Below are positions 19,602-50,730 of a DNA stretch of 64,000 bases, one piece after another. The stretch is from Escherichia coli. GTDB lineage: Bacteria > Pseudomonadota > Gammaproteobacteria > Enterobacterales > Enterobacteriaceae. The stretch lies in NCBI RefSeq assembly GCF_024502345.1, contig NZ_JALDNN010000001.1. One strand, written 5' to 3'. The translations under genes were made by a program, and so were the position numbers. How positions within the stretch are numbered: position 1 is the first letter of the stretch; every line of letters begins with the position of its first letter. The notes under the pieces were generated by a model. It was not told where the DNA came from. It made no database searches and saw only the letters and a program-made list of their open reading frames with translations.

Positions 19602-21989
<2,388 letters not shown>

Positions 21990-22478: not shown

Positions 22479-22814
22479 TACTTTGAACCGGATAACCTCG
22501 AATGGGTGACTGGTGAGATTGGTGCGCCGCCGTTCGATGTGTCGGGTGTGGCCTACCTGCTTCATGGCATGGTGTCGTTCGATAAGCGCCACCAGATCGA
22601 ATCAACCCGGCGCACACTGGAAAGCATGGTTGCTGGTGGACTGCTTGAGCGGGTGACAGTGTATGAATCGCGCCAGATACGGCGCGGCGGTGAGACTAAC
22701 GCAACGGTCGTGCGCTACGGTTTACCCGGTCAGTGCGCTGTTATGCGCGATACTGGCGGCGCTGATAGCCTGGCTGATTCCGGTAATACTGCGGAGTTAG
22801 GTCTACCGGCATAG
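22470..22814 (+). CDS. Hypothetical 114-aa ORF inside the dinD islet; possibly a 5'-truncated gene
   Basis: ORF only; protein-like composition; no recognisable family. Confidence 0.25.
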   Translation: MGSYFEPDNLEWVTGEIGAPPFDVSGVAYLLHGMVSFDKRHQIESTRRTLESMVAGGLLERVTVYESRQIRRGGETNATVVRYGLPGQCAVMRDTGGADSLADSGNTAELGLPA

Positions 22815-22858
22815 CTTACCCGTGGAGAAATGAATCATCGAATGAGTTTGGTCGGGAG

Positions 22859-23539
22859 TTATTCCACCAGCAAAAATGGCGTTGCCCGGTCTATGACGTT
22901 GATGCCAATTAACGAGCTAACATTTCGACCATTCACAATGCTATCCCGTTCAAGCAAATGCGCTATTTTTTCTACTTCATACCAGTATTGAGCCATGAGG
23001 GCTTTGGTCTTTTCAACGAGTTTAGAAAGCATTAACTCCCTGTTAATTTGCTTATTTGTAGCGCAGATTAAATCGAGCATGTCATTTACGTTAGCCATGT
23101 CATAGCGATGAGGTAGCGAATACTTTTTGTTGAAAATATCGTTGTTTTCGTAAAGGGCTTCGCTTACTGGTCCGGCGAGGGATACAAAAGCGGCCTTTTT
23201 TGCATCGCGCTTTATACCATCCGCATAGTAACGTATGAAAGGGATAACTTTACCATTCTGCCCAACTACACCAGATTTACTATCCCGCAAACGCCCGAGA
23301 TCGTGGCTGTGAATTATGCTGTGTTTAACAACGCCCAAACACTTGGCCTCATGTACATGTTCGCCAGCAACGTAACCGTATTCATCCATAACGGCGATAA
23401 CAATATTGGTTTCACGCCCACCGATATGACCAGGAATAACCGGGACAATTGTGGCAAATTCATTACCGTTAATTGTGCCCTGATAGGCGTTCAGATGAGG
23501 GGCGGCCTCAGAAATTAATCTGCTTTTTTCGATGTTCAT
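22859..23539 (-). CDS. Hypothetical protein (226 aa), cargo of the integrase islet in dinD; no family recognised
   Basis: Uninterrupted ORF with visibly lower GC than the flanking backbone, directly downstream of an intact integrase gene; contains a His cluster (GHIGG, EHVHE, HSIIHSHD). Confidence 0.6.
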   Translation of the reverse strand: MNIEKSRLISEAAPHLNAYQGTINGNEFATIVPVIPGHIGGRETNIVIAVMDEYGYVAGEHVHEAKCLGVVKHSIIHSHDLGRLRDSKSGVVGQNGKVIPFIRYYADGIKRDAKKAAFVSLAGPVSEALYENNDIFNKKYSLPHRYDMANVNDMLDLICATNKQINRELMLSKLVEKTKALMAQYWYEVEKIAHLLERDSIVNGRNVSSLIGINVIDRATPFLLVE

Positions 23540-23761
23540 TTTCAGTCTCCGTTAGGCGGCGGTGAGATTGTCCGGGTACCACATGGTTGACACTTAGATC
23601 CAACACGTAGTCGTACCTATCCAGTGAAAACCATTCCATCACATCGCCGTATTTAGCCCGTTTCATAACGCCACCTTTTACGCTGCGCCTTATTTTGTGA
23701 TTGAGCCAGGCGGTAAGGCTTCCCGCTTTTCGCCCCGTCGGGCTAGACTCAATCTATTCAG

Positions 23762-25021
23762 TTAGTTCGCCCTTCTGAGAGGCGTCACGTTGTAATCTTC
23801 GCCCTTCTCCAGAGCCACCAGCAAGCCCGCCCACTGTGTTAACGCAGCCCGTCGCTCGTCAAAGTATTGGTGACGGTTATAAATCCCCTCTACGCCCTTA
23901 ATGCGATGATTGAGGCATCGTTCCGCCACTACCGGATCAACGCCCAGCGCTGCTAAATGGGTGCGGGCCGTGCGTCGGAAGTCGTGAATCGTGAAATTAG
24001 GCACATCCGGCATTTCGGCGCGAACCTTAGCCAGTGCTACGGGCAGGGTGCTTTCCTGAATATGGGGGATCATGCGGTTTTGCATCTTTCTGGCTGGCAG
24101 TACCCATGCGCTGTTGCATGAGAACGTTTTAAGCTCTCTCAGCCATTCGACGGCTGGCGGTGCTAATGGGATGTCTATAGCGTCGCCGTTTTTGCTGCGT
24201 TCCTCTGGCAAGCGCCATACGGCTTTATCAAAATCGAACTCCTCCCAGCGGGCGGCGCATAACTCCATTTTGCGGACGCATAACGCTAACAGTAATTTGA
24301 ACGTGATTTCGTTCTGGCGACTGAATCCCTTAGCCGTGCGCATGGCTTTGAATAGCTGGATTAACTCATCGCGGGTTAACCAGCGGTCACGGGCAACTTC
24401 TTTCCCTCCGGCGTCTGCCACCTCAAAGGCTGAACAGGGGTTAATCTCCAGCGCGTGCCGTTTGATTCCGTAGTCGAATATGCGGCGCGTCCATCTCAGC
24501 ACGTCCGTTGCTATGGTCGGCGCTCCACGGTCAACAATACTTTTCAGCATGTCGTCGATATGGCGCGGCTTCACGTCCTCTACCTTCATGCTGCCAATGC
24601 AGGGGTTTATATCTTTGTCGATACGGCGGCGGAGTATATCTGGGTGCTTCCAGCGCGGCAGGATCTGACGCTCAAAGTATTCAGCGGCAAGCTCTGAAAC
24701 GCGCATGGCATTCTTCTCTGCTTCGATCTTCGCCAGTGCTTCGGCTTTCCGTTCCTGCTTCTCTCCTGCAACGTCATAGCCCAACGCAACGCGAGCCGAT
24801 AGCTCTTTGGCTGTCTCTCTGGCCTTTGATAGTGATAGCTCGGCATATGAGCCGATAACCATTGCTCGCTGCTTACCTGCGAATTTATAGCGAAAGCGCC
24901 AGAAAGGGACTGTGTAGTTTTTGGGGTAGCAAATATAAAGGCCGTTGCCATCGGCCCTTCCTTCAAATCTATCTCCGGCCTTTATCCATGCGCGGATCTG
25001 CATGTCTGTAATCTTTGGCAT
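23762..25021 (-). CDS. Tyrosine recombinase, phage-type integrase (about 419 aa), apparently intact
   Basis: N-terminal arm-binding region (GNGLYICY...FWRFRYKF) and catalytic residues (HDFRRT ... GIYNRHQY); start placed at MPKITD because the upstream ATG at 25057 lies inside a direct-repeat motif. Confidence 0.85.
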   Translation of the reverse strand: MPKITDMQIRAWIKAGDRFEGRADGNGLYICYPKNYTVPFWRFRYKFAGKQRAMVIGSYAELSLSKARETAKELSARVALGYDVAGEKQERKAEALAKIEAEKNAMRVSELAAEYFERQILPRWKHPDILRRRIDKDINPCIGSMKVEDVKPRHIDDMLKSIVDRGAPTIATDVLRWTRRIFDYGIKRHALEINPCSAFEVADAGGKEVARDRWLTRDELIQLFKAMRTAKGFSRQNEITFKLLLALCVRKMELCAARWEEFDFDKAVWRLPEERSKNGDAIDIPLAPPAVEWLRELKTFSCNSAWVLPARKMQNRMIPHIQESTLPVALAKVRAEMPDVPNFTIHDFRRTARTHLAALGVDPVVAERCLNHRIKGVEGIYNRHQYFDERRAALTQWAGLLVALEKGEDYNVTPLRRAN

Positions 25022-25144
25022 TGCGAATACCTGAACATTGAATGGGGGTGTGTACATAAACCGATGTACATAAAACCCATTATGTACACCACTATGTACA
25101 CGGCAATCGTGCGCTTTGTTGCTTCCTCATGATAGCCCATGATA

Positions 25145-25171
25145 ACAAAAAAGCCCGACAAAATGCGGGCT
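25145..25171 (-). terminator. Rho-independent terminator of yicC
   Basis: GCCCGCATTTTGTCGGGC hairpin followed by a T-run on the minus strand, about 40 bp after the yicC stop. Confidence 0.6.
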
Positions 25172-25210
25172 TTGCTGGTTTTGTGTATCTTTGTGATAGC
25201 TCTTAAATAT

Positions 25211-26074
25211 TTACTCGATATTCTGAATCTGCTCGCGCATCTGCTCAATCAACACTTTCAGCTCAATCGCGGAGTTTGTCACTTCGGCATTGATAGACTT
25301 CGACGCAAGAGTGTTCGACTCGCGGTTGAACTCCTGCATCATAAAGTCCAGACGACGACCAACGGCTTCTTTTTTCTTCAGAATGTTGTAGGTCTCTTTG
25401 ACATGCGCTTCGAGGCGGTCCAGCTCTTCGGCAACGTCAATTCGTTGTGCCAGCAGAACCAACTCCTGCTCCAGACGGTTGTTTTCCAACTGCACCTGAG
25501 CATCTTCCAGCTTCGCGACCAAGCGTTCACGCTGCCATTGCAGGATTTCCGGCATATGGGAGCGGACTTTGACCACTTCGGCGGTGACGCCTTCCAGACG
25601 CTGCTCGATCAATGCTTTCAGTGCCTGACCTTCGGTTTCGCGCGCGACAATAAAGTCGTCCAGGGTGCCATCCAACGCCGCGAGAATTTCAGCGGCAATG
25701 GCGTCAAGATCCTGCTCCTGGGCTGCCATCACGCCCGGCCAGCGCAGAATATCAACCGGGTTGATTTCCCCTTCGTCACTCTGCATTTTTACCCAGTTCG
25801 CGGCAGTTACCAGCTGTTTAGCCAGTTTTTCGTTGAGGATCAGCTCACCTTGCGCGCTAACATCTGGCTCATAGCGCAGGGTACATTCCACTTTACCGCG
25901 CGTCAGGCGAGAACGAATACGCTCACGAACGACAGGTTCAAGGCTACGGAACTGCTCCGGCAGACGAAAGTAAGTTTCCAGATAACGCTGGTTTACCGAG
26001 CGCATTTCCCAGGTTGCGCTCCCCCATTCACCCTTGATTTCACGCCGGGCGTAGGCGGTCATACTGCGGATCAT
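25211..26074 (-). CDS. yicC: YicC-family stress-induced protein (287 aa)
   Basis: Translation matches YicC. Confidence 0.9.
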   Translation of the reverse strand: MIRSMTAYARREIKGEWGSATWEMRSVNQRYLETYFRLPEQFRSLEPVVRERIRSRLTRGKVECTLRYEPDVSAQGELILNEKLAKQLVTAANWVKMQSDEGEINPVDILRWPGVMAAQEQDLDAIAAEILAALDGTLDDFIVARETEGQALKALIEQRLEGVTAEVVKVRSHMPEILQWQRERLVAKLEDAQVQLENNRLEQELVLLAQRIDVAEELDRLEAHVKETYNILKKKEAVGRRLDFMMQEFNRESNTLASKSINAEVTNSAIELKVLIEQMREQIQNIE

Positions 26075-34211: not shown

Positions 34212-34562
34212 AGTAAATAGCTGACTTATGGATGTGCTGGGGATTCTATGTATTTAGCTGTGGCTTTACCATTACTTTTCCCGTTTTTGACTTAAATAGC
34301 AATTTACCCGCCAATTCTTGCTGAACATCTATACTTTTTTTGTATTTTTATGCGATTCATTGATTTCTGCTGTACATGCAGGAAGGAATCGCAGAGCAAC
34401 AGTGAAAGAATATGGTTGCTAATGATTATATTTGATTGATTTCTTTATTGAAAATCAACAATGTGCTTAAAAATCATTCGGGTCGGATTGCCGCGAAAGA
34501 AGTGATACACTAGCGCGTCAATATCAGTGCGGTATCAGTATTCAGGTAGCTGTTGAGCCTGG

Positions 34563-34574
34563 GGCGGTAGCGTG
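34563..34574 (+). promoter_or_regulatory. ops element (GGCGGTAGCGTG) within a JUMPStart-like leader upstream of waaQ; RfaH recruitment site
   Basis: Exact ops consensus GGCGGTAGnnTG about 50 bp upstream of waaQ. Confidence 0.8.
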
Positions 34575-34623: not shown

Positions 34624-35682
34624 GTGGATAAGCCATTTCGAAGAATTTTGCTCATTAAGATGCGTTTTCATGGGGATATGTTATTAACTACTCCCGTCAT
34701 TAGTTCGCTGAAAAAAAATTACCCTGACGCAAAAATCGATGTGCTGCTTTATCAGGACACCATCCCGATCCTGTCTGAAAATCCAGAGATTAACGCGCTC
34801 TACGGCATAAAAAATAAAAAAGCAAAAGCCTCAGAAAAAATTGCCAACTTTTTTCATCTCATCAAGGTATTACGTGCCAATAAGTATGACCTTATCGTCA
34901 ATCTTACCGATCAATGGATGGTTGCTATACTGGTTCGCTTATTAAATGCCCGTGTGAAAATTTCCCAGGATTATCATCATCGGCAGTCTGCTTTTTGGCG
35001 TAAAAGTTTCACCCATTTGGTGCCGTTGCAGGGTGGAAATGTGGTGGAAAGTAACTTATCCGTGCTGACACCATTGGGACTTGATTCGTTGGTGAAGCAG
35101 ACAACCATGAGTTACCCGCCTGCAAGCTGGAAACGTATGCGTCGCGAACTTGATCACGCTGGTGTTGGACAAAATTATGTGGTTATCCAACCTACGGCGC
35201 GGCAAATCTTCAAATGCTGGGACAACGCCAAGTTTTCCGCTGTGATTGATGCCTTACATGCTCGTGGTTATGAAGTCGTTCTGACGTCCGGCCCAGATAA
35301 AGACGATCTGGCCTGCGTCAATGAAATTGCGCAGGGATGCCAGACGCCACCAGTAACGGCGCTGGCTGGAAAGGTGACCTTCCCGGAACTTGGTGCGTTA
35401 ATCGATCATGCGCAGCTGTTTATTGGCGTTGATTCCGCACCGGCGCATATTGCCGCTGCAGTTAATACGCCGCTGATATCGCTGTTTGGTGCGACAGACC
35501 ATATTTTCTGGCGTCCCTGGTCAAATAACATGATTCAATTCTGGGCGGGAGATTACCGGGAAATGCCAACGCGCGATCAGCGTGACCGAAATGAGATGTA
35601 TCTTTCGGTTATTCCGGCGGCAGATGTCATTGCTGCTGTCGATAAATTACTGCCCTCCTCCACGACAGGTACGTCGTTATGA
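34624..35682 (+). CDS. waaQ: LPS core heptosyltransferase III
   Basis: Translation matches WaaQ; exact start uncertain (GTG at 34624 or downstream ATG). Confidence 0.85.
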   Translation: MDKPFRRILLIKMRFHGDMLLTTPVISSLKKNYPDAKIDVLLYQDTIPILSENPEINALYGIKNKKAKASEKIANFFHLIKVLRANKYDLIVNLTDQWMVAILVRLLNARVKISQDYHHRQSAFWRKSFTHLVPLQGGNVVESNLSVLTPLGLDSLVKQTTMSYPPASWKRMRRELDHAGVGQNYVVIQPTARQIFKCWDNAKFSAVIDALHARGYEVVLTSGPDKDDLACVNEIAQGCQTPPVTALAGKVTFPELGALIDHAQLFIGVDSAPAHIAAAVNTPLISLFGATDHIFWRPWSNNMIQFWAGDYREMPTRDQRDRNEMYLSVIPAADVIAAVDKLLPSSTTGTSL

Positions 35683-36803
35683 TCGTTGCTTTTTGTTTAT
35701 ATAAATATTTTCCCTTTGGCGGTTTGCAGCGCGATTTTATGCGTATTGCTCAGACAGTCGCCGCCCGAGGTCATCATGTTCGGGTTTATACCCAGTCGTG
35801 GGAAGGCGAATGCCCTGATGTATTTGAACTGATCAAAGTGCCGGTTAAATCGCATACCAATCACGGGCGCAATGCGGAGTATTTTGCCTGGGTGCAAAAA
35901 CATTTACGCGAACATCCCGTCGATAAAGTCGTTGGATTCAACAAAATGCCGGGGCTGGACGTTTATTATGCCGCTGATGTTTGTTATGCCGAGAAAGTAG
36001 CGCAGGAAAAAGGCTTTTTCTATCGCCTGACGTCACGTTATCGCCATTATGCCGCCTTTGAGCGGGCAACCTTCGAACAGGGCAAGCCGACACAGCTGCT
36101 GATGCTGACAGATAAGCAAATCGCCGATTTCCGGAAACATTATCAGACTGAAGCGGAGCGTTTTCATATTCTGCCACCGGGGATTTATCCTGATCGTAAA
36201 TATAGCCAGCAGCCAGCCAATAGCCGTGAAATCTTCCGTAAGAAGAATGGAATAACCGAACAACAATATTTATTGTTGCAGGTCGGTTCAGACTTCACGC
36301 GTAAAGGTGTCGATCGTTCCATTGAAGCACTTGCTTCGTTACCGGATTCGCTGCGCCACAACACATTGCTATATGTTGTTGGGCAGGATAAACCGCGAAA
36401 ATTTGAGGCACTGGCAGAAAAACGCGGCGTGCGCAGTAATGTTCACTTCTTCTCGGGGCGCAACGATGTCTCGGAATTAATGGCGGCGGCGGATTTATTA
36501 CTGCATCCTGCCTACCAGGAAGCGGCGGGAATTGTGCTGCTGGAAGCGATTACTGCAGGATTACCGGTACTAACAACTGCCGTTTGTGGCTATGCGCATT
36601 ATATTGTCGACGCTAATTGCGGCGAGGCTATTGCTGAGCCATTCCGCCAGGAAACATTGAATGAGATTTTACGCAAAGCGTTAACGCAATCTTCATTGCG
36701 CCAGGCTTGGGCGGAAAATGCGCGACATTATGCTGATACACAAGATTTATACAGTCTGCCAGAGAAAGCGGCGGATATCATAACGGGTGGTCTGGATGGT
36801 TGA
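35679..36803 (+). CDS. waaG: LPS core glucosyltransferase I, GT4 (374 aa)
   Basis: Translation matches WaaG. Confidence 0.9.
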
Positions 36804-37593
36804 ACTTAAAGAGCCGTTTGCCACGTTATGGCGCGGCAAAGATCCTTTTGAGGAAGTTAAAACCTTGCAGGGTGAGGTATTTCGTGAACTGGAAACTCGC
36901 CGTACTCTGCGCTTCGAAATGGCGGGCAAAAGCTATTTTCTCAAATGGCATCGCGGCACGACCCTGAAAGAGATAATCAAAAATTTACTCTCATTGCGGA
37001 TGCCAGTATTAGGCGCAGACCGCGAATGGGATGCGATTCATCGACTGCGGGATGTCGGCGTTGATACTATGTATGGGGTGGCATTCGGCGAAAAAGGCAT
37101 GAATCCGCTGACCAGAACCTCGTTTATTATTACCGAAGATCTGACACCAACCATCAGTCTGGAAGATTACTGTGCTGACTGGGCGACCAACCCACCAGAT
37201 GTTCGCGTAAAGCGTATGCTTATTAAGCGTGTCGCGACGATGGTGCGCGATATGCATGCTGCGGGCATTAACCATCGTGACTGTTATATCTGTCATTTCC
37301 TGCTGCACTTGCCTTTTTCCGGTAAGGAAGAGGAGTTAAAAATTTCGGTAATTGACCTACACCGGGCGCAGCTTCGCACGCGCGTTCCACGTCGTTGGCG
37401 CGATAAAGATCTTATAGGGCTTTATTTTTCTTCAATGAATATTGGCCTGACTCAGCGGGATATCTGGCGCTTTATGAAGGTGTATTTTGCCGCCCCGCTT
37501 AAAGACATTCTCAAGCAGGAACAAGGACTGCTGTCGCAAGCAGAAGCAAAAGCCACAAAAATCAGGGAAAGAACGATTCGAAAATCGTTGTAA
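36796..37593 (+). CDS. waaP: LPS core heptose(I) kinase (265 aa)
   Basis: Translation matches WaaP. Confidence 0.9.
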
Positions 37594-37635
37594 CCCGTAA
37601 CTTATTTTTGCCAAAATTTTGGATACAGAATAAAT

Positions 37636-38643
37636 ATGTCTCAACTCAATGATAGTGACATCATCCTTTTTGAGTATAATTTTCATTATCAAAATATAAG
37701 ATCTAAAAATACTCTTGATATAGCATTTGGTATTGACAGAAATTTTCTTTTTGGATGTGGTGTAGCCATCGCATCTATTCTATTAAACAATAGAGAAATC
37801 TCTTGTGAATTTCATGTTTTCACAGATTATATCAGTGATAAAGACAAATTATATTTTTCTGATTTAGCAAAACAATATAATTCAAGAATTAATATTTATG
37901 TTATCAATTGTGATAAGCTGAAGTCATTACCAAGCACGAAAAACTGGACTTACGCAACATATTTTCGATTTATAATTGCAGATTATTTCTATCATAAACA
38001 TGAAAAAATACTATATCTTGATGCAGATATTGCTTGCAAGGGTAGTATTAAAGAACTCTTAGATTATCAATTTTCTACTAATGAAATTGCCGCAGTTGTA
38101 GCTGAAAGAGATGTTGAATGGTGGCAAAATCGAGCCTCGGTATTAACTACACCACAGTTAGCTTCTGGATATTTCAATGCTGGTTTTTTACTGATAAATA
38201 TTGATGAGTGGAATCTAAATAACATTTCGTCAAAAGCTATTGAAATGTTGCGTGACCCAGATTGGGTAAGTAAAATCACCCACCTTGATCAAGATGTACT
38301 GAATGTATTATTGAATGGTAAAGTGAAGTTTATTTCGGAGAAATATAATACCCGATATAGTATTAACTATGAATTAAAAGACAAAGTTGATAATCCAGTC
38401 AATGATGACACCGTGTTTATACACTATGTGGGACCTACAAAACCCTGGCATGAGTGGGCTGACTATCCGGTGTCACGTAGTTTTTTGATCGCCAAAGCAG
38501 CTTCTCCGTGGAGTAAAGAAGATTTACTTAAACCTGTAAATAGCAATCAGTATCGGTATTGTGCAAAACATAAATTTAAACAAAAGCATTATATGGCAGG
38601 CATTTTTAATTATTTAAAGTATTATAAAGAAAAATGCTTCTAA
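37636..38643 (+). CDS. LPS core glycosyltransferase, family GT8 (335 aa); WaaI-like by position
   Basis: GT8-type sequence features; low-GC variable part of the waa cluster; specific name from gene order only. Confidence 0.7.
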   Translation: MSQLNDSDIILFEYNFHYQNIRSKNTLDIAFGIDRNFLFGCGVAIASILLNNREISCEFHVFTDYISDKDKLYFSDLAKQYNSRINIYVINCDKLKSLPSTKNWTYATYFRFIIADYFYHKHEKILYLDADIACKGSIKELLDYQFSTNEIAAVVAERDVEWWQNRASVLTTPQLASGYFNAGFLLINIDEWNLNNISSKAIEMLRDPDWVSKITHLDQDVLNVLLNGKVKFISEKYNTRYSINYELKDKVDNPVNDDTVFIHYVGPTKPWHEWADYPVSRSFLIAKAASPWSKEDLLKPVNSNQYRYCAKHKFKQKHYMAGIFNYLKYYKEKCF

Positions 38644-38668
38644 AGATTTAAGGTTAAAATAATTCATT

Positions 38669-39376
38669 ATGATATATAATAAAACGATAAATGGGTTGAA
38701 AGTTTTCATAAAAGATAATGATCCCTTTTATGAGCAAGTTCTAAATGACTTTTTAACTTGCAGGGTTAAAACATTAAAAGTTTTTCGTTCTATTGATGAT
38801 ACTAAAGTCATTCTTATTGACACTGCTCGTGGACCTCTTGTACTTAAAGTTTATGCACCAAAGCATAAAATGACCGAACGTTTCTTAAAATCTTGCATAA
38901 AAAAAGATTATTATGAAAATTTAATTTATCAAACCGATCGGGTACGTGGTGAAGGCATCCAATCAATTAATGACTATTTTTTGCTAGCTGAACGTAAAAC
39001 ATTAAATTTCGCTCATTATTATATTATGCTCATTGAGTATATTGAAGGTGTCGGGTTAAATGAGTATTTGGAAATTTCTGAAGATCTGAAGGATCAATTA
39101 TCAGAATCGATAAAAGAGTTGCATCAGCATGGAATGGTGTCTGGCGATCCTCATAAAGGAAATTTTATAGTATCCGAAAAAGGTTTAAGACTAATTGACC
39201 TTTCAGGTAAAAAAACAACCGCTGTTTTAAAAGCAAAAGATCGCATTGATCTTGAACGGCACTATAATATAAAAAATGAATTGAAAGACTTTGGCTATAC
39301 ATATCTTATATTCAAAAAGAAAATTAAAAAAGTAATCAGGGATGTAAAAGTCAAACTAGGATTGAAGAGCAAATAA
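38669..39376 (+). CDS. waaY: LPS core heptose(II) kinase (235 aa)
   Basis: Translation shares conserved blocks with WaaY (KVFRSIDDTKV, HQHGMVSGDPH.GNF, RIDLERHY). Confidence 0.8.
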   Translation: MIYNKTINGLKVFIKDNDPFYEQVLNDFLTCRVKTLKVFRSIDDTKVILIDTARGPLVLKVYAPKHKMTERFLKSCIKKDYYENLIYQTDRVRGEGIQSINDYFLLAERKTLNFAHYYIMLIEYIEGVGLNEYLEISEDLKDQLSESIKELHQHGMVSGDPHKGNFIVSEKGLRLIDLSGKKTTAVLKAKDRIDLERHYNIKNELKDFGYTYLIFKKKIKKVIRDVKVKLGLKSK

Positions 39377-39400
39377 TGATTATGATGAAGGGTAATTAAA

Positions 39401-40414
39401 TTGGATTTTAAACATCTTACTCAATTTAAAGATATAATTGAACTGGACAAGCGCCCCGTTAAACTTGATGAACGGGAAACGTTTAATGTCTCATGGGGTA
39501 TTGATGAGAACTACCAGGTTGGGGCTGCGATTTCAATTGCTTCAATTCTTGAAAATAATAAACAAAACAAATTTACCTTTCACATAATCGCTGATTACTT
39601 AGACAAAGAGTATATTGAATTATTATCACAATTAGCAACGAAGTATCAAACAGTAATTAAATTATATCATATTGATTCTGAGCCATTGAAGGCGCTACCT
39701 CAATCAAATATCTGGCCAGTATCTATTTATTATCGTTTGCTTTCATTTGATTATTTTTCTGCGCGATTGGATTCATTATTATATCTTGATGCTGATATCG
39801 TCTGTAAGGGTTCATTGAACGAGTTAATAGCATTAGAGTTTAAAGATGAATATGGGGCAGTGGTAATTGATGTAGATGCTATGCAAAGTAAAAGCGCTGA
39901 GCGTTTGTGTAATGAGGATTTTAACGGTAGCTATTTTAACTCTGGTGTAATGTATATTAATTTACGGGAATGGTTAAAACAAAGACTAACGGAAAAATTC
40001 TTTGATCTATTATCAGATGAGTCAATTATAAAAAAATTAAAGTACCCGGATCAAGATATTTTAAACTTAATGTTTCTACATCATGCTAAAATATTACCGA
40101 GAAAATATAATTGTATTTATACTATAAAGTCAGAATTTGAAGAAAAAAATAGTGAATATTACACCCGGTTTATTAATGATGACACTGTCTTCATACATTA
40201 TACTGGTATAACTAAGCCATGGCATGATTGGGCGAACTACGCCTCTGCAGATTATTTTCGTAATATTTATAATATATCACCATGGAGAAATATACCTTAT
40301 AAAAAAGCTGTTAAAAAACATGAGCACAAAGAAAAATATAAACACTTGCTTTACCAGAAAAAATTTCTCGATGGTGTTTTTACAGCAATTAAATATAATG
40401 TTATGAAAGGTTAA
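39401..40414 (+). CDS. LPS core glycosyltransferase, family GT8 (337 aa); WaaJ-like by position
   Basis: Paralogous to the GT8 at 37636; specific name from gene order only. Confidence 0.7.
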   Translation: MDFKHLTQFKDIIELDKRPVKLDERETFNVSWGIDENYQVGAAISIASILENNKQNKFTFHIIADYLDKEYIELLSQLATKYQTVIKLYHIDSEPLKALPQSNIWPVSIYYRLLSFDYFSARLDSLLYLDADIVCKGSLNELIALEFKDEYGAVVIDVDAMQSKSAERLCNEDFNGSYFNSGVMYINLREWLKQRLTEKFFDLLSDESIIKKLKYPDQDILNLMFLHHAKILPRKYNCIYTIKSEFEEKNSEYYTRFINDDTVFIHYTGITKPWHDWANYASADYFRNIYNISPWRNIPYKKAVKKHEHKEKYKHLLYQKKFLDGVFTAIKYNVMKG

Positions 40415-40422
40415 TATACGAG

Positions 40423-41565
40423 ATGGTTGATAAAATAATATTTACGGTTACTCCTATTTTTTCAATTCCTCCTCGCGGAGCGGCTGCTGTTGAAACGTGG
40501 ATGTATCAGGTTGCTCAGCGTACCAATTTTCCAAATCGTATTGTTTGTATCAAAAATCCAGGATACTCAAATTACACCTTTGTTAATGATAATTGTAGTA
40601 TTCATAGGGTTGGATTCAGTCGCATATATAAGCGGTTATTTCAAAAATGGACAAGACTTGATCCTCTTCCATATTCACAGAGAATATTGAATATTGCACA
40701 TGATTTTCCTATAACGAAAGAAAGTGTTATTGTAGTTCATAATAGCATGAAGCTATACACTCAAATTCGTAAGCGAGCTCCTCAGGCAAGAGTGGTTATA
40801 CATATGCATAATGCATTTGAACCAAAATTGCTTGAGCAAAATGTTAAAATGATAGTGCCTAGTTTATACTTGAAAAAGTATTACCAATCTTATTTAGCAA
40901 ATGCAGATATTGAGATTGTACCAAATGGAATTGATTTAGAAACCTATCAATCTAATTTTCAGCCGATCACTAGAAGCGAACTTAATATCTCCCCTGAAGA
41001 GAAAATTATTTTTTATGCTGGGCGTATCGTCCCTGACAAAGGCATATTGCTGTTGATGCAATCATTCGAAAAATTGGCCGCTGCTCACAAAAATTTAAAA
41101 TTAGTTGTGATTGGTGATTATACAGAAATGAGTAAAAGTGACAAAGGTGCATATCAACGCAATGTCAGGGAAATTGCAAAACGTTTGAAGGATCGTTGCA
41201 TTATGTTAGGAAGCATACCGCCTGAAAAGATGCATTGTTATTACCCACTGGCAGATTTAGTCGTCATTCCTTCCCAGTTCCAGGAACCATTTTGCATGGT
41301 GGCAATTGAAGCTATGGGTGCTGGTAAGCCTGTTTTAGTGAGTACGCGTGGGGGGATGACGGAATTTGTCAAAGAAAATACTACGGGATTCCATTTAAAA
41401 GAACCTATGACTGCAGACTCCATAAGCAGCGATATTTTAAAAACGTTAGCGAATCCTGAATTAACAGCAGTTGCAAAGCAAGGTCAGGACTTTGTGTTTA
41501 ATCACTACAGTTGGGATGGCGTAACTCAAAGATTCGAAGAGGTTATTCATAATTGGTTTGAATAA
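40423..41565 (+). CDS. LPS outer-core glycosyltransferase, family GT4 (380 aa); WaaD/WaaK-like by position
   Basis: GT4 C-terminal signature (PSQFQEPFCMVAIEAMGAGKPVLVS); last gene of the long waa operon. Confidence 0.7.
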   Translation: MVDKIIFTVTPIFSIPPRGAAAVETWMYQVAQRTNFPNRIVCIKNPGYSNYTFVNDNCSIHRVGFSRIYKRLFQKWTRLDPLPYSQRILNIAHDFPITKESVIVVHNSMKLYTQIRKRAPQARVVIHMHNAFEPKLLEQNVKMIVPSLYLKKYYQSYLANADIEIVPNGIDLETYQSNFQPITRSELNISPEEKIIFYAGRIVPDKGILLLMQSFEKLAAAHKNLKLVVIGDYTEMSKSDKGAYQRNVREIAKRLKDRCIMLGSIPPEKMHCYYPLADLVVIPSQFQEPFCMVAIEAMGAGKPVLVSTRGGMTEFVKENTTGFHLKEPMTADSISSDILKTLANPELTAVAKQGQDFVFNHYSWDGVTQRFEEVIHNWFE

Positions 41566-41600
41566 ATAAAAAGGCCGCATTATGCAGCCTTTTTTATTTT

Positions 41601-42809
41601 TTACTTGTTTTTCATCGCTAATAATAAGCCGGCGTAAACGCCTAATAAATTTGGTTCAATTTGTTCTACGTTTCCACGGATAACAAAATAACCTATAAAA
41701 GATAGTAAGATTATATAATATGCATTATATGGTGAGCGATATTTATTCTTGACACCATTTTTTATACACTCTTTCAATATTGCACAGTATAGCATCATAA
41801 GACTTACCAGCCCTAATAAACCAGTGCCAAACCAGATGAATAGCGCAAAATTATGTGGCCCTATTGATTGTCTAAAGGTCCATTCTGGATAATCAATGAC
41901 ACGTTTATTATAGACATCTTTATATGCAACGTTACCGTAACCATAACCAATAACAGGATTTTCTAATATTAGATCGAGTGCGCTGCCTTGAGTACCATTT
42001 GCATAGCGATAAGAACTATTAGTTTGTTGAAGTTTATACGTTAGCTTTGCGGTCATCTCCTTATGTGTGAAAATAACCGACAATGCAATGATGGCAACCA
42101 TTACTCCTACTAATAGTAACTTCCATTGTTTAAACATCAGAATCCATATTAATCCAATGACTAACACGGAAAGCCAGGCCCCTCTGGATAAAGTTCCTAA
42201 TATCAGAAAAATAAAAATAACGCTTAGAACCACAAAAGAAATGCGGTATTTTGCTGATTTGATAAGCCAGAGATTTAACAATGCAGGGAATAAAAAGACC
42301 ATCGAGTCAGAAATGCTACGGTGTCTATAATCTGCGAATGGCATTATCCCTTGTTGATAGTCCTTATAATAGGTAATCAATTCAGAAAAACAGCGTAAGC
42401 CCAACGCACTAATAAATGAGAAGAAAACGATTTTTTCGACATCTTCTCTTTTCTCGTCTCTCAATATGATCGGTATTGCTATTGTGCATAGTAAAGTATT
42501 CTCAATAATAGCTTTGAAAATTTCCTTCATGCTAGCACCTGCATCAGGGGATTGAAGAAGTGACAGCAATGCAGCAATAGTTAATATGGCAACACTACCA
42601 AAAAGAAATGTTTTAAATAGTGAGAGATAGTGTTTTGGCCGTTTGCAGAGATAGACGATTGTCGTTATTGTCATAAGAATAACAATAAGATGTTTATACC
42701 TTGTAATCCCACCCAAAAAATAGGTGGTAATGAATAAGAATACGAGAGCTCTGTTCCAGTACGCTATCCAGTTTTTTTTCTCGAGAGAGAAAAATAATGT
42801 TGAGGTCAT
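41601..42809 (-). CDS. waaL: O-antigen ligase (402 aa), polytopic membrane protein
   Basis: Highly hydrophobic, low-GC ORF convergent with the waaQ operon and upstream of waaC. Confidence 0.8.
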   Translation of the reverse strand: MTSTLFFSLEKKNWIAYWNRALVFLFITTYFLGGITRYKHLIVILMTITTIVYLCKRPKHYLSLFKTFLFGSVAILTIAALLSLLQSPDAGASMKEIFKAIIENTLLCTIAIPIILRDEKREDVEKIVFFSFISALGLRCFSELITYYKDYQQGIMPFADYRHRSISDSMVFLFPALLNLWLIKSAKYRISFVVLSVIFIFLILGTLSRGAWLSVLVIGLIWILMFKQWKLLLVGVMVAIIALSVIFTHKEMTAKLTYKLQQTNSSYRYANGTQGSALDLILENPVIGYGYGNVAYKDVYNKRVIDYPEWTFRQSIGPHNFALFIWFGTGLLGLVSLMMLYCAILKECIKNGVKNKYRSPYNAYYIILLSFIGYFVIRGNVEQIEPNLLGVYAGLLLAMKNK

Positions 42810-43798
42810 CTTATCTCCGATGTCAATTTATTGGTTATTATTTCAAGATTTAAATTTTGAAAAACGGTTTGAGCTGGCAAATCTGCAAGAGACATACTTG
42901 TAGAACGACACTCTACTTGATTCTTCCCATACCCACCAATTAATCCCGGATCGGTTGGTCCATAAACCGTGATATTGGGTCTATCCAGTGCCGCCGTTAA
43001 ATGGCTTAACCCCGTATCCACCGACACTACAAATTTAGCCCCGGCCAGCACGCGGGCAACGCCTTCCAGACTCATCTTCGGCAATACTTCAACATAAGCA
43101 AATCCTTCCGCCAGTCGTTTCGCCCGTTCTTCCTCATGCGGCGCGCCCCACGGAAGTTTAATCCGTATTCCTGAATCAGCCAGTAAACCAATCAATTCTC
43201 GCCAGTGTTCTTCCGGCCAGTGTTTATCATCACGGGTCGTCGCATGAAGAAATACGGCATATTCGCCAGCATCTGTAGGCAGGTTCGTCAGAAAATGCTG
43301 TGCGATAGCATAATCGCCCTGGGTTTGCGGTTTGCTATAGCCCAAACTTTTGGCAAACAGTTCGCGGGTGCGTTCTACGGCGTGCTGCTGTTTTGCAATA
43401 TGATGCTTACGATTGTAAAACAGGCTGGCTAAAGGTTCGCGAGCGGTTTGCCAGTCCATGCCATGCTTTACGCCATGCGCCAGACGCGTCACCAGCGCCG
43501 CGCTTTTTACCAGCCCCTGAGCGTCGATAACTGCGTCATAGTTCTCTGCTTGTAGCGCTTCACGAAACGCTTTGCGTTCAGCTTTTATAGGGGCCGAGAA
43601 CCAGGCTTTACGCCAGCGACGTATTGCCACAGGAATAACTCGCTCAACGGCAGCGTGCCAGGAAGGAATCTGTGCGAACCCTTCTTCCACCACCCAGTCA
43701 AACTTAATTTCTGGGATTGCCTGCTGGGCATCAGTGAGTGCGGGCAACGTATGGAGAACATCGCCCATCGACGATGTTTTAACGATCAAAACCCGCAT
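42806..43798 (-). CDS. waaC: LPS heptosyltransferase I (330 aa); C-terminus differs from the K-12 protein
   Basis: Translation matches WaaC over most of its length, then diverges (...GYGKNQVECRSTSMSLADLP...). Confidence 0.9.
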   Translation of the reverse strand: MRVLIVKTSSMGDVLHTLPALTDAQQAIPEIKFDWVVEEGFAQIPSWHAAVERVIPVAIRRWRKAWFSAPIKAERKAFREALQAENYDAVIDAQGLVKSAALVTRLAHGVKHGMDWQTAREPLASLFYNRKHHIAKQQHAVERTRELFAKSLGYSKPQTQGDYAIAQHFLTNLPTDAGEYAVFLHATTRDDKHWPEEHWRELIGLLADSGIRIKLPWGAPHEEERAKRLAEGFAYVEVLPKMSLEGVARVLAGAKFVVSVDTGLSHLTAALDRPNITVYGPTDPGLIGGYGKNQVECRSTSMSLADLPAQTVFQNLNLEIITNKLTSEIR

Positions 43799-43801
43799 CC
43801 G

Positions 43802-44848
43802 TCAGGCTTCCTCTTGTAACAATAGCGCGTTGAGTTCTTCCAGTACGCGCTGGGGAGTAATGTCGATCAAGCTCTGGTGATAACCCTCCGCAGCGTCACC
43901 TTTACGCACTTTGTGATAGCCGGTAATCAGGCGGATCACGCGCGCTTTATGGGATAGCGGCGGTGTGAAGTCCGGGCTACTCGGACCATACAGGGCAACC
44001 AGCGGACGATTGAGCGCCGCCGCAACGTGCATCAGGCCAGAATCGTTAGTGACAATGGCTTTACAGGCTGCAATCAGGATAACCGCTTGATCAAGCTGTG
44101 TTTCCCCCGCCAGGTTCCGACACCATGCCTGCTGCTCGGTATTCAAAGCGGCAAGAATCTCATTGCCTGCTTCATGATCTTTCGCCGAGCCAAACAGAAC
44201 CACCTGATAACCTTCATCAATCAGCTGCTTTGCCAGCTCCGCATAGTGGTAGTGTGGCCAGCGTTTTGCCGGACCAAACTCCGCACCCGGGCAAAAACCA
44301 ATCATCGGACGTTCTGATGAAAGCGAAAATTGATTACAGGTATATGATTTTTCACCTTCGCTCACCTGCAACTGCGGCCATAACAATGGCTGCGGCAGAT
44401 CTTGTGCTGTGCGCATAATGCCTTTGTCATAGGCCAGCGCGACATAGCGTTCCACCATTAGCGGCCAGGCTTCTTTATCGAGCACGCGTACATCGTTGAG
44501 TAAACCGTAGCGCATCTCGCCGCGCCAGCCGGTGCGATGAGGAATACCCGCGAAGAAAGGCACTAATGCGGATTTGAAGGAGTTGGGTAAGACGTAGGCG
44601 CGGTCGTAGCGCTTTTCACGCAGGCTATGACCCAGTTTGCGGCGTTCGCCGATTTCCAGCGCTCCGTGACCGAGAGGCATAGGGATAGCTTCGTTAACTT
44701 CCGGCATCCGCGATAATAATGGACGGCACCATGCCGGTGCCATCACATCGATTATCGCCTGGGGATAGCGCGCCTGGAGCGTGCGATAGAGACTTTGCGA
44801 CATCATCATGTCGCCAACCCAAGACGGGCCGATCACCAGTATTTTCAT
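43802..44848 (-). CDS. waaF: LPS heptosyltransferase II (348 aa)
   Basis: Translation matches WaaF. Confidence 0.9.
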   Translation of the reverse strand: MKILVIGPSWVGDMMMSQSLYRTLQARYPQAIIDVMAPAWCRPLLSRMPEVNEAIPMPLGHGALEIGERRKLGHSLREKRYDRAYVLPNSFKSALVPFFAGIPHRTGWRGEMRYGLLNDVRVLDKEAWPLMVERYVALAYDKGIMRTAQDLPQPLLWPQLQVSEGEKSYTCNQFSLSSERPMIGFCPGAEFGPAKRWPHYHYAELAKQLIDEGYQVVLFGSAKDHEAGNEILAALNTEQQAWCRNLAGETQLDQAVILIAACKAIVTNDSGLMHVAAALNRPLVALYGPSSPDFTPPLSHKARVIRLITGYHKVRKGDAAEGYHQSLIDITPQRVLEELNALLLQEEA

Positions 44849-44857
44849 GCAGAGCTC

Positions 44858-45790
44858 TTATGCGTCGCGATTCAGCCAGGCCATGTATTCCGTTACACCT
44901 TCAGCAACGGTTTTGAACGGTTTGTCGTAACCCGCCGCGCGCAGATTTGTCAGATCTGCCTGAGTGAACGCCTGGTAGCGGCCTTTCAGCTTATCCGGGA
45001 ACGGAATGTATTCGATCTGGCCTTTCTTGTGATAAGCCAGCGTAGCATCAGCTACAGCCTGGAAGGATTCCGCACGACCGGTGCCGAGGTTGAAGATGCC
45101 GGAAACGCCATTTTCCAGGAACCACAGGTTTACATCTGCCACATCGCCAACATAGACGAAGTCGCGTTTAAAGTTCTCGCTACCTTCGAACAGCTTCGGT
45201 GATTCACCGTTATTAAGCTGGGTGTTGAGATGGAAAGCGACGCTCGCCATGCTGCCTTTATGGCCTTCACGCGGTCCATAAACGTTGAAATAGCGGAAGC
45301 CAACAATCTGCGAGTTCGCTTCCGGCAGGATTTGGCGAACATATTCATCAAACAGGAATTTTGAGTAACCGTAGACGTTCAACGGTTTTTCGTACTCGCG
45401 GGATTCAATAAAGTCGGAGGTGCGTCCGCCGTAGGTGGCTGCGGAAGAAGCGTACAGGAACGGGATTTCACGCTCCAGGCAGTAGTGCAGCAGCTCCTTG
45501 GAGTATTGATAGTTGTTATCCATCATATACTTGCCGTCCCACTCGGTGGTGGAAGAGCACGCGCCTTCGTGGAAAATCGCTTCGACATCGCCGAACTCTT
45601 CGCCAGCCATAATCTGGATCAGGAAGTCTTCCTTATCCATATAGTCTGCGATATTCAGATCCACCAGGTTCACAAACTTGGTGCCGTCTTTCAGGTTGTC
45701 CACCACCAGAATATCGGTGATGCCTTTATCATTCAGGGCTTTAACGATGTTGCTGCCGATAAAGCCCGCGCCGCCGGTAACGATGATCAT
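44858..45790 (-). CDS. hldD: ADP-L-glycero-D-manno-heptose 6-epimerase (310 aa)
   Basis: Translation matches HldD/RfaD ([11 protein letters not shown]). Confidence 0.95.
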
Positions 45791-46093
45791 AACTGTAACC
45801 TTCGAATTATGGAGTCAGAGACAATCTCAGACACGAATGTCTGTAATCATACCATCACATCCGAATCCCTTCAGCCCTTTACATAGAGGTGCAAGGATGC
45901 TAATTGCAACAAACTAGTTTGGGATTTAGCTAGTCCTTCATGGCGGATGTTGGTTTTGCATGTGAATAGTGCTTTAGTATCAATATTCCGATGTATGATA
46001 AATAACGGAAGCATTTGAATGGATAATATACAGTATACATTCTGTTAATATTTATGATATAATTCTTTTTTTATATTAATGGTCTTATTAGTA

Positions 46094-46951
46094 ATGAAAT
46101 CATCCACCACAATTATCACTGCATATTTTGACATTGGTAGAGGGGATTGGACTGCTAATAAAGGGTTCCGTGAAAAACTAGCTCGTTCAGTTGATGTTTA
46201 TTTTAGTTACTTTGAGCGTCTGGCCGCACTTGAAAATGAGATGATTATTTTCACTTCTCCCGATTTGAAACCAAGGGTTGAAGCGATTCGCAACGGAAAA
46301 CCAACAACGGTTATCGTTATCGATATAAAAAAGAAATTTAGATATATCAGAAGTCGTATCGAAAAAATTCAAAAAGATGAGTCGTTTACAAATAGACTTG
46401 AGCCTCGACAATTAAAAAACCCAGAGTACTGGTCACCAGAGTATGTTTTGGTATGTAACCTTAAGGCCTATTTTGTAAATAAAGCTATCAACATGGGCTT
46501 AGTGAAAACGCCTCTTGTTGCGTGGATAGATTTTGGCTATTGCCGTAAGCCAAATGTAACTCGAGGATTGAAAATTTGGGATTTCCCATTTGATGAAAGT
46601 AAGATGCATCTTTTCACTATAAAAAAAGGGCTTACTGTCACATCTCAACAACAGGTTTTTGATTTCATGATTGGCAATCATGTATATATTATTGGGGGCG
46701 CAATTGTTGGTTCACAGCATAAATGGAAAGAATTCTATAAATTAGTTCTGGAAAGTCAAAAAATAACACTAAATAATAACATTGTGGATGATGACCAGGG
46801 CATTTTTGTCATGTGCTATTACAAACGCCCCGATCTCTTCAACCTAAACTATCTGGGGAGAGGAAAATGGTTCGATTTGTTTCGCTGCTTCAGGAGTAAC
46901 ACTTTAGGGGCAAAAATGCAGGCGCTGAGAATTTTCCTTTCAAGAAAATAG
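46094..46951 (+). CDS. htrL: HtrL/YibB-family protein (285 aa)
   Basis: Translation and position between hldD and kbl match htrL; low GC. Confidence 0.8.
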   Translation: MKSSTTIITAYFDIGRGDWTANKGFREKLARSVDVYFSYFERLAALENEMIIFTSPDLKPRVEAIRNGKPTTVIVIDIKKKFRYIRSRIEKIQKDESFTNRLEPRQLKNPEYWSPEYVLVCNLKAYFVNKAINMGLVKTPLVAWIDFGYCRKPNVTRGLKIWDFPFDESKMHLFTIKKGLTVTSQQQVFDFMIGNHVYIIGGAIVGSQHKWKEFYKLVLESQKITLNNNIVDDDQGIFVMCYYKRPDLFNLNYLGRGKWFDLFRCFRSNTLGAKMQALRIFLSRK

Positions 46952-47225
46952 GTTTCCCTCCATTAGTGGGTAGCGTTTTGATACCAACTGAGATAGGAAA
47001 AATGATGCTTTGGCATCATTTTTTCTTTTTATATCAATGCAGTAAAATCAATCATCATTATGCCCAGCCAAAACTGTACAGTTTTTCTACTATCTGTAGG
47101 TGTTGAGAGACATCAAGTTACACGTTATTTATCCTGAATTTTGCAGAAGTGTTAACGCGTCATCTCGTCGCGACGTATAAGTTTGGGTAATATGTGCTGG
47201 AATTTGCCCTGTCTGGAGAATCGCA

Positions 47226-49695: not shown

Positions 49696-50730
49696 ATGAT
49701 GAACAGCACCAATAAACTTAGTGTTATTATTCCGTTATATAATGCGGGCGATGATTTCCGCACTTGTATGGAATCTTTAATTACGCAAACCTGGACTGCT
49801 CTGGAAATCATTATTATTAACGATGGTTCAACGGATAATTCTGTTGAAATAGCAAAGCATTACGCAGAAAACTATCCGCACGTTCGTCTGTTGCATCAGG
49901 CGAATGCTGGCGCATCGGTGGCGCGTAATCGTGGGATTGAAGTGGCAACGGGCAAATATGTCGCTTTTGTCGATGCTGACGATGAAGTCTATCCCACCAT
50001 GTACGAAACGCTGATGACCGTGGCGTTAGAGGACGACCTCGACGTGGCGCAGTGCAACGCTGACTGGTGTTTTCGTGAAACGGGAGAAACCTGGCAATCC
50101 ATCCCCAGCGATCGCCTTCGCTCAACCGGTGTATTAACCGGCCCGGACTGGCTGCGGATGGGGCTTTCTTCGCGCCGTTGGACTCACGTTGTCTGGATGG
50201 GGGTTTATCGCCGCGATGTTATTGTTAAAAATAACATTAAATTTATTGCCGGATTACATCATCAGGATATTGTCTGGACAACAGAATTCATGTTTAATGC
50301 GCTGCGTGCGCGATATACCGAGCAATCATTATATAAATATTATCTGCATAATACGTCAGTGAGTCGGTTGCATAGACAAGGGAATAAAAACCTTAATTAT
50401 CAACGTCACTATATTAAGATTACCCGCCTGCTGGAGAAATTAAATCGAAATTATGCCGACAAAATTACGATTTATCCGGAATTTCATCAGCAAATAACTT
50501 ACGAAGCATTGCGTGTTTGCCATGCGGTGCGCAAAGAGCCGGATATTCTTACCCGCCAACGGATGATTGCCGAGATATTTACTTCCGGTATGTATAAGCG
50601 CCTGATTACCAATGTGCGCAGCGTGAAGGTGGGTTATCAGGCGTTACTGTGGTCTTTCCGCTTATGGCAATGGCGCGACAAAACGCGGTCGCACCATCGC
50701 ATTACGCGTAGCGCCTTTAATTTGCGCTAG
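49696..50730 (+). CDS. waaH: GT2-family glycosyltransferase WaaH/YibD (344 aa)
   Basis: Translation matches WaaH/YibD. Confidence 0.85.
   Translation: MMNSTNKLSVIIPLYNAGDDFRTCMESLITQTWTALEIIIINDGSTDNSVEIAKHYAENYPHVRLLHQANAGASVARNRGIEVATGKYVAFVDADDEVYPTMYETLMTVALEDDLDVAQCNADWCFRETGETWQSIPSDRLRSTGVLTGPDWLRMGLSSRRWTHVVWMGVYRRDVIVKNNIKFIAGLHHQDIVWTTEFMFNALRARYTEQSLYKYYLHNTSVSRLHRQGNKNLNYQRHYIKITRLLEKLNRNYADKITIYPEFHQQITYEALRVCHAVRKEPDILTRQRMIAEIFTSGMYKRLITNVRSVKVGYQALLWSFRLWQWRDKTRSHHRITRSAFNLR

Follow-up and report, generated by a model that had tools for sequence, protein, structure and literature searches.

An Escherichia coli outer-core waa locus predicted to be of the standard R3 type

The outer-core part of the waa locus differs among the Escherichia coli core types K-12, R1, R2, R3 and R4, and the R3 type sets the site of O-antigen attachment and influences recognition by phages and core-directed antibodies. 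The R3 core is linked to EHEC/STEC and LEE-positive strains as well as to S. flexneri (PMC8715443, PMC3184986), and recognition by amoeba predators likewise depends on it (PMC9927288). For a 64,000-nucleotide stretch of E. coli DNA (the window), a first-pass annotation had proposed the R3 pattern waaI-waaY-waaJ-waaD for the genes at 37636-42809, raising the question of which core type this segment belongs to. Judged from its sequence, the segment almost certainly forms the type-specific middle of a standard waa locus of the E. coli/Shigella R3 type. The R3 locus found here is ordinary and already known, with nothing novel about it, and the result serves only to type the strain as R3 core; with roughly one in four complete E. 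coli genomes carrying the cassette, no new biology follows from it.

Five ORFs occupy the segment at exactly the positions given by that annotation, and an ORF map combined with family scans bore out the order it had read after waaQ-waaG-waaP, namely a GT8 transferase, waaY, a second GT8 transferase, a GT4 transferase and a convergent waaL (Table 1). Its statement that K-12 has waaS-B-O-J-Y-Z-U after waaQGP agrees with the MG1655 annotation, and the window is unlike that order. The gene content and order of R3, waaQ-G-P-I-Y-J-D with a convergent waaL, are present according to the ORF map, the family scans, colinearity with O157:H7 and the positions of published deletion primers. The waaQ operon opens with the conserved genes waaQ, waaG and waaP, whose identity is about 98-100% to their R1, R3 and R4 counterparts and 73-90% to those of K-12 and R2; because waaG fell below every family cut-off in the NCBIfam scan, its name comes from a BLASTP match to typed WaaG at 99.5% identity. 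On the opposite strand, waaL is the final gene of the rfaD-waaF-waaC-waaL operon, whose structure is drawn from published work or inferred; the start of waaL and the stop of waaC share 4 bases. No disruption or frameshift was seen in the genes of the locus, every ORF being full length with its frame intact.

Table 1. Positions of the waa genes and associated signals in the window
Feature	Position	Strand	Length	Product or class	Basis or remark
JUMPstart element with ops	34536-34574	+		waaQ leader	Rfam RF01707
waaQ	34624-35682	+		heptosyltransferase III	NCBIfam RfaQ equivalog
waaG	35679-36803	+		glucosyltransferase I, adds Glc I	99.5% BLASTP identity to typed WaaG
waaP	36787-37593	+		heptose I kinase	NCBIfam RfaP equivalog
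waaI (ORF1)	37636-38643	+	335 aa	GT8	
waaY (ORF2)	38669-39376	+	235 aa	heptose II kinase	
waaJ, R3 allele (ORF3)	39401-40414	+	337 aa	GT8	TTG start
waaD (ORF4)	40423-41565	+	380 aa	GT4	last gene of the waaQ operon
Intrinsic-terminator-like hairpin	41568-41594	both directions		bidirectional	in the 35-bp waaD/waaL gap
waaL, R3 allele (ORF5)	41601-42809	-	402 aa	O-antigen ligase	
waaC, waaF, rfaD (gmhD)	42806-45790	-		conserved inner-core heptose genes	NCBIfam RfaC, RfaF equivalogs

Family scans placed ORF1 and ORF3 in Pfam Glyco_transf_8 plus 8C, ORF4 in Glycos_transf_1 (GT4) and WaaL in Wzy_C, and the NCBIfam assignments were PRK15171 for the waaI product (619.6 bits), the RfaY equivalog for WaaY (390.5 bits), the PRK15484 subfamily for WaaD (769.8 bits) and the RfaL equivalog for WaaL (692.7 bits). 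RefSeq labels the waaI gene 'waaO'. When the proteins were compared with typed loci by BLASTP, a check that had been proposed at the outset, identities were 99.7-100% with O157:H7 (R3) and did not exceed 58% with K-12, R1, R2 and R4; every best match was to R3, and none to R1, R2, R4 or K-12. WaaI, WaaY and WaaL are 100% identical to their O157:H7 counterparts, while WaaJ and WaaD are 99.7% identical, each with a single substitution (Y309H and D360N, respectively). R2 is the closest non-R3 type for four of the five proteins, through WaaO for WaaI (58%), WaaY (58%, within a range of 52-58% to the other core types), WaaK for WaaD (57%) and WaaL (51.5%); the best non-R3 match of WaaJ is WaaT of R1/R4 (44%), above the R2 WaaJ (42%). 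The WaaL sequence is exactly that of UniRef entry Q9ZIT8_ECOLX and gave no BLASTP match to the ligases of R1, R4 or K-12 (for K-12, E<1e-3). By its complete identity to O157:H7 WaaL it is the R3-specific waaL allele, which serves as a typing criterion in PMC8715443.

Core-typing PCR, the other proposed check, was run in silico on the window with the nine primers of PMC13293308 (its Table 2), and the R3 pair alone matched. Primer R3-R lies at 39485-39507 (+) within waaJ and R3-F at 40486-40505 (-) within waaD, both exact, and the predicted waaJ-waaD amplicon of 1,021 bp has the published size; the other seven typing primers had no site in the window even at 4 mismatches, leaving R3 positive and the four other types negative. 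As a control, the reference loci for K-12, R2, R1, R4 and R3 were all typed correctly, the R4 reference having been located through the R1 waaY-waaL segment, to which it matches in part, and its type confirmed by the R4 primers. Published deletion primers fall on the ORF borders, and the names waaI-waaY-waaJ-waaD given in the first-pass annotation are thus right. Those of PMC9927288 (an R3 strain; waaI, waaJ, waaD and waaG) map exactly to the borders with one exception, and those of PMC3184986 (S. flexneri 2457T; waaI, waaJ, waaD and waaL), as well as the waaI primers of PMC11394844 (O157:H7 ATCC 43895), are exact. The waaI deletion arms end at 37638 and start at 38623, and the S. flexneri primers lie at 39404 and 40411 for waaJ and at 41604 and 42806 for waaL. 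For the exception, the upstream arm for waaJ in PMC9927288, the match has 2 substitutions, which we attribute to cassette-priming bases included in the test string. Among the verification primers of the same study, waaI-up-VF mapped only with 4 errors and waaJ-down-VR had no match in the window.

At the DNA level, the 5174 bases of 37636-42809 share 99.9% identity with E. coli O157:H7, O55:H7, G6/7 and CP53, with 5 SNPs relative to O157:H7 strain 493/89. The closest genomes, CP060061 (G6/7), CP033096 (CP53) and CP038412 (O157:H7 493/89), are assigned to R3 by a 2025 typing study (PMC13293308, Table S1), and the segment is therefore nearly identical to genomes typed independently. Matches of at least 95% over the full segment were found in 1363 of the 5426 complete E. 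coli genomes, and the remaining matches (4074 records) reach 60-80% over parts only, a bimodal distribution with nothing between. Colinearity with the O157:H7 locus extends without gaps over 17,174 bases at 99.28% identity. The R3 loci of O157:H7, O55:H7, S. flexneri 2a and the strain of PMC9927288 agree with the window in gene content, gene order, orientation and intergenic signals and have a typing amplicon of the same size, and that of O157:H7 differs only by WaaJ Y309H and WaaD D360N, both common alleles.

Membership in another core type (K-12, R1, R2 or R4) might be entertained on the grounds that GT8 transferases and waaY are common to all core types, that RefSeq names ORF1 after waaO and that ORF4 falls in the NCBIfam subfamily of R2 WaaK, but it is exceedingly improbable. 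Protein identity to these types stays within the limit given above and DNA identity is 64-69% over parts only, their typing primers find no sites, and the window is without waaS, waaB, waaZ, waaU, waaK, waaT, waaW, waaV and waaX, with no homologue of waaU, waaZ, waaV or waaX among its ORFs. The R2 locus (waaQGP-S-B-O-J-Y-Z-K) resembles the window in its convergent waaL within the rfaD operon, but it has waaS, waaB and waaZ, places waaJ before waaY, and carries waaQGP that are 73-88% identical to those of the window, from which the R2 primers are absent. At the position of R2 waaS, the annotation gives merely a GT8-family gene. K-12 shares the three-operon layout, the JUMPstart leader, the convergent waaL and yibB/htrL adjoining rfaD; unlike the window, it has the gene order described above and lacks a WaaD homologue, and its WaaO, WaaY and WaaJ are 57%, 56% and 40% identical to the window proteins. 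The waaQGP genes of R1 and R4 are 98-99% identical to those of the window, whereas their outer-core genes (waaO-T-Y-W-V in R1 and waaO-T-Y-W-X in R4) are unlike it, their waaL lies on the strand of the waaQ operon rather than convergent to it, and their references lack yibB. Primers, genome distribution and BLASTP together rule out these other types.

A hybrid locus, in which R3 genes are joined to those of another type, deserves mention because hybrids exist in E. coli, R2/K-12 ones having been reported (PMC13293308), and because waaQGP of the window match R1/R4 alleles as well as R3. As waaQGP are alike in R1, R3 and R4, the flanks alone cannot separate these types; this likeness is, however, inherent in the standard loci, all genes between waaP and waaC have their best match in R3 at 99.7-100%, and 17 kb of gap-free colinearity with the R3 locus of O157:H7 refutes a hybrid from waaA to tdh, so that its probability is negligible. 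There is equally little chance that an R3-like sequence has an altered function here, with a core truncated or modified through WaaJ Y309H or WaaD D360N. These are two non-synonymous differences from O157:H7, but the exact variants are widespread (153 contigs for WaaJ and 557 for WaaD), both occur in the top-matching genome G6/7, typed R3, and all reading frames are intact. That Y309H, D360N or the absence of the unlinked wabB gene might shift the outer core away from that of O157:H7 R3, for example by loss of the GlcNAc branch, is slightly less remote yet still very unlikely. The standard R3 locus thus remains the preferred reading.

For the assembly of an R3 core, the individual transfer steps, the dependence on RfaH and the structure of the operons come from published work or are inferred, and the enzyme roles rest on PMC9927288 and PMC3184986 as secondary citations; in these, WaaI is an alpha-1,3-galactosyltransferase adding Gal (HexII) to Glc I. 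Transcription of the waaQ operon would start upstream of waaQ, with RfaH acting at JUMPstart/ops to keep it processive. WaaG would transfer Glc I onto Hep II, WaaI alpha-1,3-Gal onto Glc I, WaaJ alpha-1,2-Glc onto this Gal and WaaD a side-branch hexose onto the glucose added by WaaJ, while WaaP would phosphorylate Hep I, WaaY would phosphorylate Hep II and WaaQ would add Hep III. WaaL would then join undecaprenyl-PP-linked O antigen to the finished core, and both convergent operons would end at one shared hairpin. The attachment site of O antigen is reportedly the glucose added by WaaJ, and WabB, the product of a gene located elsewhere, is said to add the GlcNAc of the R3 outer core (both points being attributed to work by Kaniuk and colleagues in 2004); the full R3 structure can therefore not be inferred from the window alone. 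The wabB gene has been placed in the virulence-plasmid operon pgdA-wabB-virK-msbB2 (PMC4267944). The sole caveat on the R3 result concerns the sugar handled by WaaD, on which the literature is split: the side-branch sugar on HexIII is glucose according to PMC9927288 but GlcNAc according to PMC3184986, and database names, which give a GlcNAc transferase, agree with the latter.

R3 and Salmonella reportedly share the Glc-Gal-Glc outer-core backbone and the gene names waaI and waaJ (1998 review by Heinrichs, Yethon and Whitfield). The Salmonella enterica waa locus has waaB and waaZ, and WaaK there adds GlcNAc. The window WaaD falls in PRK15484, a WaaK-like subfamily.

The leader of the waaQ operon holds a JUMPstart RNA scoring 55.2 bits in Rfam (gathering score 35) and, at 34563-34574, the ops element GGCGGTAGCGTG, an exact 12-mer match that is unique within the window. 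These are the sequence features of an RfaH operon, and together they form a putative signal for antitermination by RfaH along the long waaQ operon. At its other end, the hairpin between waaD and waaL was matched by a terminator scan, is bordered by runs of A and of T, and has predicted folding energies of -11.9 kcal/mol (z -3.2) on the + strand and -16.4 kcal/mol (z -5.3) on the - strand. A promoter scan of the A+T-rich cassette returned 34 candidates against 31.1 expected from shuffled sequence, and for this reason no claim is made for internal promoters. The type-specific cassette spans approximately 37594-42917, with a G+C content of 33.1% compared to 49.5% and 52.8% in its flanks. Relative to R1/R4, the breakpoints lie at 37593 and 42918, and homology with the K-12 locus also breaks at 42918. 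The terminal ~110 bases of waaC (42806-42917) are part of the R3-specific cassette, and WaaC consequently has 330 aa here compared to 319 aa in K-12.

The waa outer-core locus of the window (37636-42809, 5174 bases) is, as judged from sequence, of the R3 type: every defining feature that can be tested in this way is present, namely the order of the genes, the allele of waaL, the typing amplicon and the identity to genomes of assigned type, and the defining features of K-12, R1, R2 and R4 are absent from the window. The first-pass annotation had read the order GT8, waaY, GT8, GT4 and a convergent waaL after waaQ-waaG-waaP; the ORF map reproduced its ORF positions to the base, and Pfam and NCBIfam assignments agree with that order. 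The K-12 order that it had set against the window was likewise found in the MG1655 annotation (waaQ-G-P-S-B-O-J-Y-Z-U, waaL convergent), which is clearly unlike the present arrangement.

Features in window coordinates, with BLASTP identities of the outer-core proteins to typed loci
Feature	Position	Strand	Description	O157:H7 (R3)	Best non-R3
226-aa ORF	22859-23539	-	without family match		
Tyrosine integrase	23762-25057	-	431 aa; Arm-DNA-bind_3, Phage_int_M, Phage_integrase		
JUMPstart element	34536-34574		Rfam RF01707, 55.2 bits		
waaQ	34624-35682	+	ORF map; NCBIfam RfaQ equivalog		
waaG	35679-36803	+	ORF map		
waaP	36787-37593	+	ORF map; NCBIfam RfaP equivalog		
ORF1 (waaI)	37636-38643	+	335 aa; Pfam GT8 and GT8 C-terminal domain	100%	58% (R2 WaaO)
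ORF2 (waaY)	38669-39376	+	235 aa; NCBIfam RfaY equivalog	100%	58% (R2 WaaY)
ORF3 (waaJ)	39401-40414	+	337 aa, TTG start; Pfam GT8 and GT8 C-terminal domain	99.7%	44% (R1/R4 WaaT)
Primer R3-R	39485-39507	+	exact site		
ORF4 (waaD)	40423-41565	+	380 aa; Pfam Glycos_transf_1 (GT4)	99.7%	57% (R2 WaaK)
Primer R3-F	40486-40505	-	exact site		
ORF5 (waaL)	41601-42809	-	402 aa, convergent; Pfam Wzy_C; NCBIfam RfaL equivalog	100%	51.5% (R2 WaaL)
waaC	42806-43798	-	stop overlapped by waaL start; NCBIfam RfaC equivalog		
yibB/htrL	46079-46951	+	Pfam HtrL_YibB		
waaH	49696-50730		intact 344-aa ORF		

The R3 call was upheld by BLASTP against the typed loci, in which all five proteins shared 99.7-100% identity with R3; since R3 was best for every protein and no non-R3 match exceeded 58%, no best match falls to another core type. 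Outside R3, the outer-core proteins are closest to those of R2, and R1 and R4 carry a waaQGP segment nearly identical to that of the window. Similarity between the window WaaL and the R1, R4 and K-12 ligases was undetectable by BLASTP. ORF1 scored 619.6 bits against the NCBIfam lipopolysaccharide 3-alpha-galactosyltransferase model, and ORF4 769.8 bits against the PRK15484 subfamily. Core-typing PCR, which the first-pass annotation had proposed as a check, was run in silico with nine primers (PMC13293308 Table 2). Only the R3 pair matched, with a predicted amplicon of 1,021 bp, the size published for this pair; primers for R1, R2, R4 and K-12 had no site in the window with up to four mismatches allowed. 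As a control, the nine primers returned the expected types on MG1655 (K-12), MRSN346638 (R2), ATCC 25922 (R1, as in Table S1 of PMC13293308), 201609 (R4) and O157:H7 493/89 (R3).

The locus is already known and very common, being present in approximately 25% of complete E. coli genomes, and a frequency of 31% was reported in the sample of PMC8715443. By megablast, the 5174 bases matched at full length in 1363 of 5426 complete E. coli genomes (1118 at ≥99% identity, 245 at 95-99%), a collection that leaves out Shigella genomes, several of them R3 carriers. A more sensitive blastn search with waaI-waaD recovered the same 1363 genomes at ≥95%, and the remaining 4074 records reached only 60-80% identity over 7-51% of the query; no match fell between these groups, and the distribution is strictly bimodal. 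The top megablast matches, at 99.9%, include O157:H7, O55:H7 RM12579, G6/7 and CP53; CP060061 (G6/7), CP033096 (CP53) and CP038412 (O157:H7 493/89) are listed as R3 in Table S1 of Trofimova et al. 2025 (PMC13293308), and R3 is the preferred core type in serogroup O157 (PMC8715443). The window aligned with the O157:H7 locus without gaps over 17,174 bases at 99.28% identity, with 5 SNPs inside the outer-core segment, of which two are non-synonymous (WaaJ Y309H and WaaD D360N). The exact window proteins are common in public data, each occurring on between 153 and at least 1000 contigs. FDAARGOS_943 and FDAARGOS_944, the complete E. coli genomes with the best match to the 24-kb neighbourhood (26000-50000), reached only 99.5% identity, in 2-3 pieces; this collection therefore does not contain the source strain or lineage.

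Relative to R1 and R4, the window is highly identical up to 37593, where waaP ends, and again from 42918 onward, which delimits an R3-specific cassette of approximately 37594-42917 that takes in the final ~110 bases of waaC; WaaC accordingly has 330 aa in the window versus 319 aa in K-12. The outer-core segment is also compositionally distinct, with a G+C content of 33.1% versus 49.5% and 52.8% in its flanks. The waaP start is ambiguous: GTG at 36787 gives 268 aa, and RefSeq RfaP in equivalent loci has 265 aa (start 36796). Beyond waaC lie waaF (NCBIfam RfaF equivalog) and rfaD, the latter adjoined by the low-G+C gene yibB/htrL (region 45839-47121). The O157:H7 and K-12 loci have this gene as well; in the R1, R2 and R4 references it is missing and kbl comes directly after rfaD. 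Presence or absence of yibB/htrL does not track the outer-core cassette. The annotation of G6/7, otherwise the closest R3 genome, lists waaH (UDP-glucuronate:LPS(HepIII) glycosyltransferase) as a pseudogene interrupted by an internal stop.

The gene names are fixed by published mutagenesis primers that map to ORF borders. The PMC9927288 arms for R3 waaI, waaG and waaD and the waaJ downstream arm are exact at ORF borders; the waaJ upstream arm differs by 2 substitutions, attributed to cassette-priming bases included in the test string. Exact mapping was also obtained for S. flexneri 2457T primers for waaI, waaJ, waaD and waaL (PMC3184986) and O157:H7 ATCC 43895 waaI primers (PMC11394844). In R3 genomes, waaI bears the RefSeq symbol 'waaO', though it encodes the galactosyltransferase WaaI, which shares only 54-58% identity with the WaaO glucosyltransferases of K-12, R1, R2 and R4; within the corresponding protein cluster, one of the source names is glucosyltransferase. 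RefSeq and NCBIfam name WaaD 'lipopolysaccharide N-acetylglucosaminyltransferase' via PRK15484, which is common to the window WaaD and R2 WaaK (57% identity), and the database name was probably transferred by homology from WaaK. WaaD is treated as a GlcNAc transferase in PMC3184986 and as a glucosyltransferase in PMC9927288, and one partial database entry, P0055, names it 'UDP-glucose--(glucosyl)LPS alpha-1,2-glucosyltransferase'.

The JUMPstart element, 50 bases upstream of waaQ, contains the ops sequence GGCGGTAGCGTG; by analogy with what is established for JUMPstart operons, transcription of waaQ-G-P-I-Y-J-D would be RfaH-dependent. In the 35-bp waaD-waaL gap, a hairpin between A and T runs is terminator-like on both strands (-11.9 and -16.4 kcal/mol; z-scores -3.2 and -5.3). 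WaaI adds the HexII galactose and WaaJ the HexIII glucose (PMC9927288, PMC3184986), the RefSeq product name agreeing for WaaJ. WaaG would add Glc I, WaaD the HexIII substituent, and WaaP and WaaY would phosphorylate Hep I and Hep II, with WaaL, presumably co-transcribed with rfaD-waaF-waaC, ligating O antigen to the core. Kaniuk and colleagues (2004) are said to have placed the ligation site at the glucose added by WaaJ, with WaaD reportedly an alpha-1,2-glucosyltransferase and the outer-core GlcNAc reportedly added by WabB, encoded elsewhere. PMC4267944 cites the title of this study, together with the plasmid operon pgdA-wabB-virK-msbB2.

Outside the waa region, a ~2.7-kb insert (approximately 22480-25210) lies between yicG and yicC, where G6/7 has dinD. 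No complete E. coli genome covered ≥80% of 21800-25900, the best match reaching 61% coverage at 98.9% identity, and the insert, which carries the tyrosine integrase and the 226-aa ORF, resembles a variable integrative islet of small size located at a hotspot.
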